From Escherichia coli (lineage in GTDB: Bacteria > Pseudomonadota > Gammaproteobacteria > Enterobacterales > Enterobacteriaceae): a DNA stretch of 64,000 nucleotides. Below are positions 35,502 through 37,892 of this stretch, piece by piece. The DNA lies in assembly GCF_003334335.1 (NCBI RefSeq), contig NZ_QOWQ01000004.1. One strand, 5' to 3'. The translations under genes were made by a program, and so were the position numbers. The number at the start of each line of letters is the position of its first letter. Within the stretch, counting starts at the first letter, position 1. The notes beneath the pieces were generated by a model. It made no database searches. It saw only the letters and a list, made by a program, of their open reading frames with translations, and was not told the origin of the DNA.

Positions 35502-37892
35502 TTACTTCACATCATCCGGCAGCGCATAAGCCACAATATAGTCGCCCATCTTCGTACCAAATGAACCGTGACCGCCTGCGGAGATCACCACATACTGCTT
35601 ACCATTCACTTCATAGGTCATTGGCGTAGCCTGACCACCCGCTGGTAAACGACCCTGCCACAGTTTTTCACCGTTGCTCATGTTGTAAGCGCGCAGGTAG
35701 TTATCTGCCGTAGCGGCGATAAACAGCACGTTACCCGCCGTGGAGATTGGCCCGCCCAGCATCGGCATACCCATATTGAACGGCACCGGAACCGGCATCG
35801 GGAACGGCATACTGTCCTGCGGCGTACCAATACGTTTCTTCCACACCACTTCATTAGTTTTCAGATCCAGCGCCGAGATATAACCCCATGCTGGCTGTTT
35901 ACATGGCAGACCAAATGGTGAGAGGAACGGGTTGAGCGTGACACCATACGGTACACCGTACTGTGGCTGAATGCCGGATTCCGTACCCGTGCCTTTGGCA
36001 TCTTTCGGCTGCTCCATCGGGTTGCCAGGACCACGCGGGATCAGTTTCGAAACAAACGGCAGTGCCATTGGGTTGGCAATCGCCACTTCACGATTTGGAT
36101 CAACGGAAATCCCGCCCCATTCGAACATCCCCAGGTTACCCGGGAAGACCAGCGTACCCTGTTCAGATGGCGGGGTGAAAATGCCTTCATAGCGCATCTG
36201 GTGGAACATCACGCGGCACACCAGTTGGTCAAACATGGTGGCTCCCCACATATCCGCACCGCTCAAATCTTTCGTCGGACGGAAGCTCAGTTCAGAAAAC
36301 GGTTGAGTTGGGGTTACGTAATCGCCTTTCGCTGCACCTTGGGGAACCGGTTTTTCCGGTGCCGGAACCACCAGTTCGCCATTACGACGATCGAGCACAA
36401 AAATGTTGCCGGTTTTCGCCGGAGCGTAAATAACTGGCACTTTCTGACCATTAACGGTGATGTCCGCCAGCGTCGGCTGTGCCGGAAGATCCATGTCCCA
36501 CAGGTCGTGGTGAACGGTCTGGTAGCTCCACGCCAGTTTCCCGGTAGTGGCATTCAGCGCCAGAATCGAGCTGGCATAACGTTCCTGTTCCGGTGTGCGG
36601 TTACCGCCCCAGATATCCGGCGTGGTCACGCCCATCGGCAGATAGACCAGATCCAGCTTCGCGTCATAGGCCGCTGGTGCCCAGGAGTTTGGCGAGTTAA
36701 AGGTAAAGGTGTGTTCGTCAGACGGGATTGCGTTCGGATCTTTCGCGCCGGGATCAAAAGCCCACAGCAGCTCCCCGGTGTTGACATCAAAACCACGGAT
36801 CACGCCAGACGTTTCGCGGGTTGAGAAGTTATCGGTAACTGAACCGGCCATCACGATGGTTTTATCGGTGATAATCGGTGGCGAAGTCGGTTCATACAGA
36901 CCCGGTTTGGTGTCTGGCATATTGCTTTGCAGATTGAGCACGCCTTTATTGGCGAAGGTTTCGCACAGTTTGCCGTTTTCAGCGTTAATCGCAATCAGTC
37001 GACCATCATTGACCGGAAGAATGATACGACGCGGGCAATCCGCCATCACTTCCGGCGAAGCGGTTTCTGCTTTGGCTTCATGATAAGAGACACCACGGCA
37101 GGTTACGTGCTGGAAAGACTCGTTGGTTTTCAGCTCAGGATCGTAATGCCATTTCTCTTTGCCGCTGGCGGCATCAAGCGCAAACAGGCGCTGGTGAGCG
37201 GTACACAGGTAAAGGGTGTCGCCCACTTTAATCGGCGTCACTTCATTGGTGATTTCACCCGGATCGTTCGGCTGCTTCACATCGCCAGTACGGAACACCC
37301 AGGCTTCTTTCAGATTATGGACGTTATCGGCGTTAATTTGTTTCAGCGGCGAAAAGCGTTGACCTTCCTGATTACGACCATAGGCAGGCCAGTCCTGATC
37401 GGCTACGGGGGAGATAGCTTCAGCAGGTGTGGCATCGGCGCTTAAGGTGCCGTTGATCTCCTGCGGATCGTTAAATCCGGCCCAGGTCAGGATACCACCG
37501 CTAATCAGCAGTGCGACCACCAGTGCGGCAACTGCGCCGCTGGCAGGAATGACCAGGCGACGCCAGACAAACGGCAGGATCAGCCAGATGCCGAAGAAGA
37601 CCAGAATGTCGCTGCGCGGAGTCAGCGCCCAGAAGTCGAAACCAACTTCCCAGACGCCCCAAATCATGGTGCCGAGCAGCAGGGCTGCGTATAGCCAAAG
37701 CGCGGCGCGTTTACTGCGCCACAGCATCCAGGCGACGCCGAGCATCACAAGGCCAGCGATAGGGTAGTACCAGGAGCCGCCAATCGCGACCAGCCAGCCT
37801 CCGCCAATGAGTAGATACAGCCCGCAAAGCGCTGCAAAAAGGGCTGTTAGCGTGACGAGTAATCGTCGCGAGCCTGTATTGTTAATTGCCAT
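35502..37892 (-). CDS. gcd: PQQ-dependent membrane glucose dehydrogenase Gcd
   Basis: 796 aa starting MAINNTGSRRLLV; N-terminal TM helices plus PQQ beta-propeller. Confidence 0.96.
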   Translation of the reverse strand: MAINNTGSRRLLVTLTALFAALCGLYLLIGGGWLVAIGGSWYYPIAGLVMLGVAWMLWRSKRAALWLYAALLLGTMIWGVWEVGFDFWALTPRSDILVFFGIWLILPFVWRRLVIPASGAVAALVVALLISGGILTWAGFNDPQEINGTLSADATPAEAISPVADQDWPAYGRNQEGQRFSPLKQINADNVHNLKEAWVFRTGDVKQPNDPGEITNEVTPIKVGDTLYLCTAHQRLFALDAASGKEKWHYDPELKTNESFQHVTCRGVSYHEAKAETASPEVMADCPRRIILPVNDGRLIAINAENGKLCETFANKGVLNLQSNMPDTKPGLYEPTSPPIITDKTIVMAGSVTDNFSTRETSGVIRGFDVNTGELLWAFDPGAKDPNAIPSDEHTFTFNSPNSWAPAAYDAKLDLVYLPMGVTTPDIWGGNRTPEQERYASSILALNATTGKLAWSYQTVHHDLWDMDLPAQPTLADITVNGQKVPVIYAPAKTGNIFVLDRRNGELVVPAPEKPVPQGAAKGDYVTPTQPFSELSFRPTKDLSGADMWGATMFDQLVCRVMFHQMRYEGIFTPPSEQGTLVFPGNLGMFEWGGISVDPNREVAIANPMALPFVSKLIPRGPGNPMEQPKDAKGTGTESGIQPQYGVPYGVTLNPFLSPFGLPCKQPAWGYISALDLKTNEVVWKKRIGTPQDSMPFPMPVPVPFNMGMPMLGGPISTAGNVLFIAATADNYLRAYNMSNGEKLWQGRLPAGGQATPMTYEVNGKQYVVISAGGHGSFGTKMGDYIVAYALPDDVK

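Follow-up and report, generated by a model that had tools for sequence, protein, structure and literature searches.

The window, a stretch of Escherichia coli DNA of 64,000 nucleotides, carries gcd, the gene for the quinoprotein glucose dehydrogenase. Its annotated genes are ftsQ (partial), ftsA, ftsZ, lpxC, secM, secA, mutT, yacG, zapD, coaE, guaC, hofC, hofB, ppdD, nadC, ampD, ampE, aroP, pdhR, aceE, aceF, lpd, yacH, acnB, yacL, speD, speE, yacC, cueO, gcd, hpt, can, yadG, yadH, yadI, yadE, panD, rpnC, panC, panB, the yad fimbrial operon, folK, pcnB, gluQ, dksA, sfsA, thpR, hrpB and mrcB. A block of low GC content at approximately 46000-54000 (40-43%, as compared with approximately 52% elsewhere) corresponds to the yadC-yadK-yadL-yadM-htrE-yadV-yadN fimbrial operon, and such a composition is commonly seen in chaperone-usher operons that were acquired horizontally or are silenced by H-NS. 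Five matches above the Rfam gathering score were found in the window, none of which overlaps gcd; they are listed in the table together with the features of the gcd locus.

Table. Features of the gcd locus and Rfam elements of the window, in window positions
Feature	Position	Strand	Basis or remark
gcd CDS, quinoprotein glucose dehydrogenase	35502..37892	-	identical to K-12 b0124; 796 aa + stop
Periplasmic PQQ beta-propeller catalytic domain, residues 168-768	35589..37391	-	Pfam PF01011
N-terminal hydrophobic membrane anchor, residues 10-141	37470..37865	-	hydropathy
Sigma-70 promoter-like site (ATGACG, 18 nt, TATAAT)	37936..37965	-	10/12 consensus matches
Two REP-like palindromes	35367-35395, 35431-35464		between the convergent genes cueO and gcd, past the gcd stop codon
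PssrA	1891-1980	+	Rfam; ftsA/ftsZ junction
STnc40	7627-7696	+	Rfam; secA end
naRNA4, two copies	8100-8176, 8216-8293	+	Rfam; mutT-yacG spacer
tp2	19568-19681	-	Rfam; antisense in pdhR-aceE spacer

The entire window is collinear with positions 103334..167333 of MG1655 (NC_000913.3), from which it differs by nine substitutions and no indels. These lie at positions 16754, 22859, 28629, 30864, 33394, 42626, 56038, 59845 and 61080; five are synonymous and four are nonsynonymous (yacC Q64L, yadV V55A, gluQ G90R and sfsA V136G), and none falls inside gcd, which is identical to the reference over its 2391 nt. Two of the nine window alleles are shared by strain ML35, while those at 28629, 30864, 33394 and 42626 are found in neither MG1655, ML35 nor strain 11. 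ML35 differs from the window at 5 positions over 49.8 kb, strain 11 differs at 17, and among the complete RefSeq genomes sampled none was identical to the window. Judged from these alleles, the DNA comes from a strain derived from or very closely related to K-12, as opposed to the MG1655 reference itself.

The longest open reading frame spanning gcd in the mechanical list of reading frames, 35502..37910 on the minus strand, begins with TTG and encodes 802 amino acids. The annotated start is the in-frame ATG at 37892, as in the RefSeq record of K-12 b0124, and the resulting translation, MAINNTGSRRLL...DDVK, contains a single stop codon, at its end. Over residues 15-792, the protein matches positions 2-783 of the 783-position NCBIfam model TIGR03074, which describes the membrane-bound PQQ-dependent dehydrogenases of the glucose/quinate/shikimate family, with a score of 1194.5 bits (cut-off 832.65). 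The propeller is equally complete, since Pfam PF01011 aligns over its full model (1-595 of 595, E 8.5e-251). In a Kyte-Doolittle scan, the hydrophobic stretches of Gcd are confined to residues 10-40, 63-81, 96-116 and 111-141. By eye, this region can be divided into five predicted helix segments (approximately 11-31, 35-57, 62-82, 93-113 and 117-140), a count in line with the published topology of membrane-bound glucose dehydrogenase (mGDH).

The nine residues defined by mutagenesis of mGDH as catalytic, PQQ-binding or metal-binding (H262, D354, N355, W404, T424, D466, K493, D730 and H775) are all found at their positions in Gcd, whose sequence is the same as that of the K-12 protein used in experimental work. 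The protein thus combines the full-length TIGR03074 match, the complete propeller, a multi-helix anchor of approximately 150 residues and the key residues that together mark the mGDH family. The preliminary description of this locus had claimed an intact gcd reading frame that encodes an N-terminal membrane anchor followed by a PQQ propeller. Both parts of that claim are upheld, the first by the 796-residue translation with its one terminal stop and 100% identity to b0124, and the second by TIGR03074, PF01011 and the hydropathy scan. As for structural relatives, the PDB sequence comparison found no solved structure of mGDH itself; its top match was a quinohemoprotein alcohol dehydrogenase (1kv9, E 3.6e-46), and the nearest solved structures to the propeller are the PQQ alcohol and methanol dehydrogenases.

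The promoter-like site listed in the table lies upstream of gcd, in the divergent gcd-hpt spacer, and is one of two sigma-70 consensus matches found, a number not above that in shuffled sequences (mean 1.8). On the other side of the gene, the REP-like palindromes may serve as terminator or stabilizer elements. Such REP-like sequence is repeated throughout the genome: the median number of places matched by a flanked query was 29 per genome. One plasmid record matched this query at query positions 125-163 only. The cueO-gcd spacer (35301-35501) also holds a terminator-like hairpin of cueO, at 35323-35340. Its length is 201 nt here as compared with 46 nt in ST131 and TL20, such that approximately 155 nt are present or absent between lineages. 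The antisense reading frames inside gcd are of the kind that a GC-rich coding strand usually produces.

A quinoprotein dehydrogenase requires its cofactor, and the preliminary description stated that no PQQ biosynthesis genes lie in the window, that K-12 does not make PQQ, and that pqq genes elsewhere in the genome would speak against a dependency on external PQQ. The annotated gene list, from ftsQ to mrcB, holds no pqq gene, and a tblastn comparison of the PqqA-F proteins with the six frames of the window gave a best E value of 0.29. Beyond the window, three queries of approximately 3.3 kb of pqqA-E DNA, from Enterobacter cloacae, Acinetobacter baylyi and Pseudomonas entomophila, were compared by blastn (word size 11) with 5,426 complete RefSeq E. 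coli genomes, a set of 20,395 chromosomes and plasmids that includes MG1655 and W3110, and yielded 0 matches at E <= 1e-3. The first two statements are confirmed, the one concerning K-12 by MG1655 and W3110 as well as by the literature. As for the third, no pqq genes came to light in the 5,426 complete genomes, from which the absence is extended to the genome of the window. Within the reach of a DNA search, which a pqq cluster of less than approximately 65% nucleotide identity (for example, of the alphaproteobacterial type) could escape, E. coli as a species lacks PQQ biosynthesis. Since pqq is absent species-wide, it does not matter that the window is K-12-like rather than exactly MG1655.

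This sensitivity was gauged with authentic pqq loci, of which each query detected 80 of 80, at 65-84% nucleotide identity, under the same program settings and with an effective search space of 28 Gb. The loci span Enterobacterales, Acinetobacter, Pseudomonas and Paraburkholderia, and are the best 80 of 600 stretches matched by PqqC in reference genomes; these best 80 include no Escherichia and no K. pneumoniae either, and served only as a source of pqq DNA. The PqqC probe, from K. pneumoniae, scores 388 bits on TIGR02111 (cut-off 240) and aligns over all 251 residues with the solved K. pneumoniae PqqC (3HLX, 1OTV; E 3.2e-176), with one mismatch to the variant PqqC chain shown. In the E. cloacae DSM 26481 operon used as a probe, each of pqqB, C, D, E and F scores above the cut-off of its NCBIfam model, and pqqA lies at position 4953 of the probe locus.

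Directly downstream of pqqF in E. cloacae DSM 26481 (10530-12740 of the locus, minus strand) is a gene for a second membrane-bound PQQ dehydrogenase, which scores 1010 bits on TIGR03074. It is a paralogue physically linked to the cofactor operon. This pqq-flanking gene was rejected as a control for the distant search because the paralogous PQQ dehydrogenase is only 40% identical to E. coli Gcd, and cross-detection among the 80 pqq loci was used instead.

Plasmids were also compared with PqqC by tblastn, and 216 of 72,556 plasmid records matched. These belong mainly to Sinorhizobium, Pseudosulfitobacter, Rahnella, Rhizobium, Paraburkholderia and Acinetobacter, and the organism names listed for them include no Escherichia. 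Several Acinetobacter plasmids that carry pqqC are only 17-23 kb in length (NZ_CP060814.1, NZ_CP130329.1 and NZ_CP032118.2), and PQQ biosynthesis genes can thus reside on small, potentially mobile replicons.

In the same species, gcd is kept almost without exception. It was found at a coverage of at least 80% in 5,424 of the 5,426 complete genomes, and the rows sampled showed an identity of 96-100%. Six alleles, from the window, O157:H7, ST131, TL20, EC21Z-097 and an ETEC isolate, are all intact at 2391 nt, and their pairwise dN/dS values (Nei-Gojobori) are 0.00-0.054 at a dS of 0.04-0.16. Between the window and TL20, there are 70 synonymous differences and not one nonsynonymous difference. 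The gene is under strong purifying selection.

A few unusual copies of gcd were encountered. In strain EBJ003 (NZ_CP086334.1), the gene is cut after approximately 1263 nt by a Mu-like prophage with Mor, gp16 and Gam genes, and in strain 1223 (NZ_CP023383.1, 868979-871453) it contains an in-frame duplication of 84 nt within a CDS of 2475 nt that is annotated as intact. In addition, the gcd query gave 10 matches on records labeled as plasmids in E. coli assemblies, which may represent partial copies of the gene or chromosomal contigs assigned to plasmids in error.

The preliminary description made no mention of how PQQ reaches the enzyme. PQQ is supplied through a dedicated importer of high affinity, PqqU, whose K-12 gene b1451 (formerly yncD) is annotated pqqU, 'pyrroloquinoline quinone outer membrane transporter', and lies approximately 1.38 Mb from gcd, outside the window. 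PqqU is a TonB-ExbBD-dependent outer-membrane transporter through which Gcd is activated at approximately 1 nM PQQ, and at concentrations about 30-fold higher, PQQ is taken up without need for PqqU (Hantke & Friz, bioRxiv 10.1101/2022.06.07.495086). Its affinity for PQQ is in the low- to sub-nanomolar range, and PQQ scavenging is widespread among bacteria that possess quinoproteins without the biosynthetic pathway (Sci Adv 2025, PMC12124388). In the present survey, pqqU was found at a coverage of at least 80% in 5,409 of the 5,426 genomes; it is kept, as befits a scavenging system, in a species that keeps gcd and lacks pqq.

Taken together, these observations make it almost certain that Gcd is produced as an apoenzyme that is activated by PQQ scavenged from outside the cell. 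From the present analysis, this reading draws on the identity and intactness of the gene, its domains, the absence of pqq, the retention of both gcd and pqqU, and the low dN/dS; catalysis, PQQ dependence and transport by PqqU are taken from the literature. Accounts of the enzyme state that E. coli cannot make PQQ (Matsushita 1997, as cited), which is explained by its having no pqqABCDE(F) genes, and that Gcd is active only with external PQQ (bioRxiv 10.1101/2022.06.07.495086; PMC12124388). Furthermore, mutants of the PTS can use glucose for growth only if they are given PQQ, and phosphate limitation induces both Gcd and the secretion of gluconate (Hantke & Friz, bioRxiv 10.1101/2022.06.07.495086). 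The analysis turned up no evidence that contradicts the scavenging of PQQ by an apoenzyme, and the literature search found no report of cross-feeding of PQQ to E. coli in the gut.

The proposed sequence of events would begin with gcd giving rise to mGDH (EC 1.1.5.2), made without its cofactor and held in the inner membrane by approximately five transmembrane helices, with the propeller facing the periplasm. PQQ released by other bacteria would cross the outer membrane via PqqU at nanomolar levels, and through porins at higher levels, and together with a divalent cation would bind the apoenzyme in the periplasm. The holoenzyme would then oxidize D-glucose to gluconolactone and pass the electrons to the ubiquinone of the respiratory chain, the transfer from reduced PQQ to ubiquinone being established, and the gluconate would be either imported or secreted. 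The strong purifying selection on gcd would be maintained because natural habitats offer PQQ often enough. The preliminary description had already called Gcd an apo-protein unless cofactor is supplied, and had spoken of a conserved, maintained dependency on an exogenous cofactor. The former agrees with the species-wide absence of pqq and with the literature on external PQQ, and the latter is substantiated by the retention of gcd (5,424/5,426) and pqqU (5,409/5,426) and by dN/dS values of 0.00-0.054.

The near-absolute conservation of Gcd could also be read as the mark of something other than scavenging alone, namely a second, PQQ-independent function or some cryptic source, within the cell, of a PQQ-like cofactor, although we consider this very improbable. 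It is also highly unlikely that the source genome makes its own PQQ, from pqq genes on the chromosome or a plasmid or by a non-canonical, cryptic pathway, such that Gcd would be an ordinary holoenzyme. The travel of pqq genes on plasmids, including the Acinetobacter plasmids of 17-23 kb, lends this idea some substance, as does the fact that the absence of pqq from the source genome rests on 5,426 other E. coli genomes. Yet in none of those genomes did any chromosome or plasmid match the three divergent pqq queries, whose sensitivity in the control was 100%, and the pqqC-bearing plasmids listed include none from Escherichia.

Equally unlikely is the retention of Gcd for a PQQ-independent role, whether with another cofactor, as a structural component or by moonlighting, in place of PQQ-dependent glucose oxidation. 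The one observation in its favor is the very strong purifying selection on the gene in an organism unable to make the cofactor. Against such a role stand the conservation of all PQQ-binding and catalytic residues, the co-retention of a dedicated PQQ importer in 5,409 of the 5,426 genomes, and the growth of PTS mutants via Gcd only with added PQQ, as reported in the literature. Lastly, the notion that gcd is an evolutionary relic, useless after the loss of pqq and drifting towards a pseudogene, can appeal to the lack of pqq genes in all 5,426 genomes and to rare disrupted alleles such as that with the Mu-like prophage in EBJ003, but is scarcely credible for a gene that is present in 5,424 of those genomes, has remained intact at 2391 nt in six sampled alleles at a dS of up to 0.16, keeps every mutagenesis-defined residue and encodes an enzyme that functions once PQQ is supplied (literature), and it is therefore rejected on the strength of the purifying selection (dN/dS 0.00-0.054).

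An apoenzyme activated by scavenged PQQ also places Gcd among systems that are already well described. The PQQ-less Gcd apoenzyme of E. coli is known from descriptions that go back to the 1980s-90s, and the route of PQQ uptake was published between 2022 and 2025 (Hantke & Friz 2022; Sci Adv 2025). The gcd of the window departs in nothing from the reference and is an ordinary E. coli gene: it shares with K-12 Gcd (b0124, NP_414666.1, EC 1.1.5.2) the same 2391 nt and the same cueO-gcd-hpt-can context, and only the surrounding window differs from MG1655, at the nine positions given above. What is added here is a count, across 5,426 complete genomes, of those with pqq (0), with gcd (5,424) and with pqqU (5,409), along with the dN/dS figures.

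The Gcd or GdhA proteins of Klebsiella, Enterobacter, Pseudomonas and Acinetobacter belong to the same TIGR03074 family and carry out the same periplasmic conversion of glucose to gluconate. Unlike E. coli, which is without any pqq gene, these organisms make their own PQQ by means of pqqABCDE(F), and E. cloacae has, in addition to pqqA-F, the second membrane PQQ dehydrogenase that adjoins pqqF. Another parallel is the scavenging of vitamin B12 by E. coli through BtuB, in which, as with PqqU and PQQ, the enzyme and a high-affinity importer are kept and the cofactor pathway is absent. The two differ in that PQQ acts in the periplasm and at higher concentrations also enters via porins.

For E. 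coli, PQQ therefore resembles a vitamin: the species has two PQQ enzymes and a high-affinity importer, the biosynthetic genes are absent, and neighbors supply the compound. The locus is a clean and well-documented case of lasting dependence on a cofactor released by other bacteria, with relevance to gut and soil ecology and to phosphate solubilization. In metabolic engineering, the activation of Gcd needs either added PQQ or supplied pqq genes.

The second of the two enzymes is the soluble PQQ aldose dehydrogenase encoded by yliI, which K-12 also keeps; Gcd and YliI are the only two PQQ enzymes known in E. coli (2026 chemical-proteomics paper, PMC13088180). YliI (Asd, b0837) is likewise an apoenzyme with the same dependence on external PQQ, but in contrast to Gcd it is soluble in the periplasm, belongs to a different fold family, accepts a broader range of substrates and is of low abundance; its gene lies outside the window. 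K-12 also keeps pqqL; despite its name, the current annotation makes it a periplasmic metalloprotease, not a gene of PQQ synthesis. Divergent from pqqU lies K-12 yncE (b1452; 6308-7369 of the locus, plus strand), whose product is a propeller protein with the annotation 'PQQ-like domain-containing'. Deletion of yncE gave no PQQ-growth phenotype, and a possible role as a gluconolactonase has been suggested (bioRxiv 10.1101/2022.06.07.495086).
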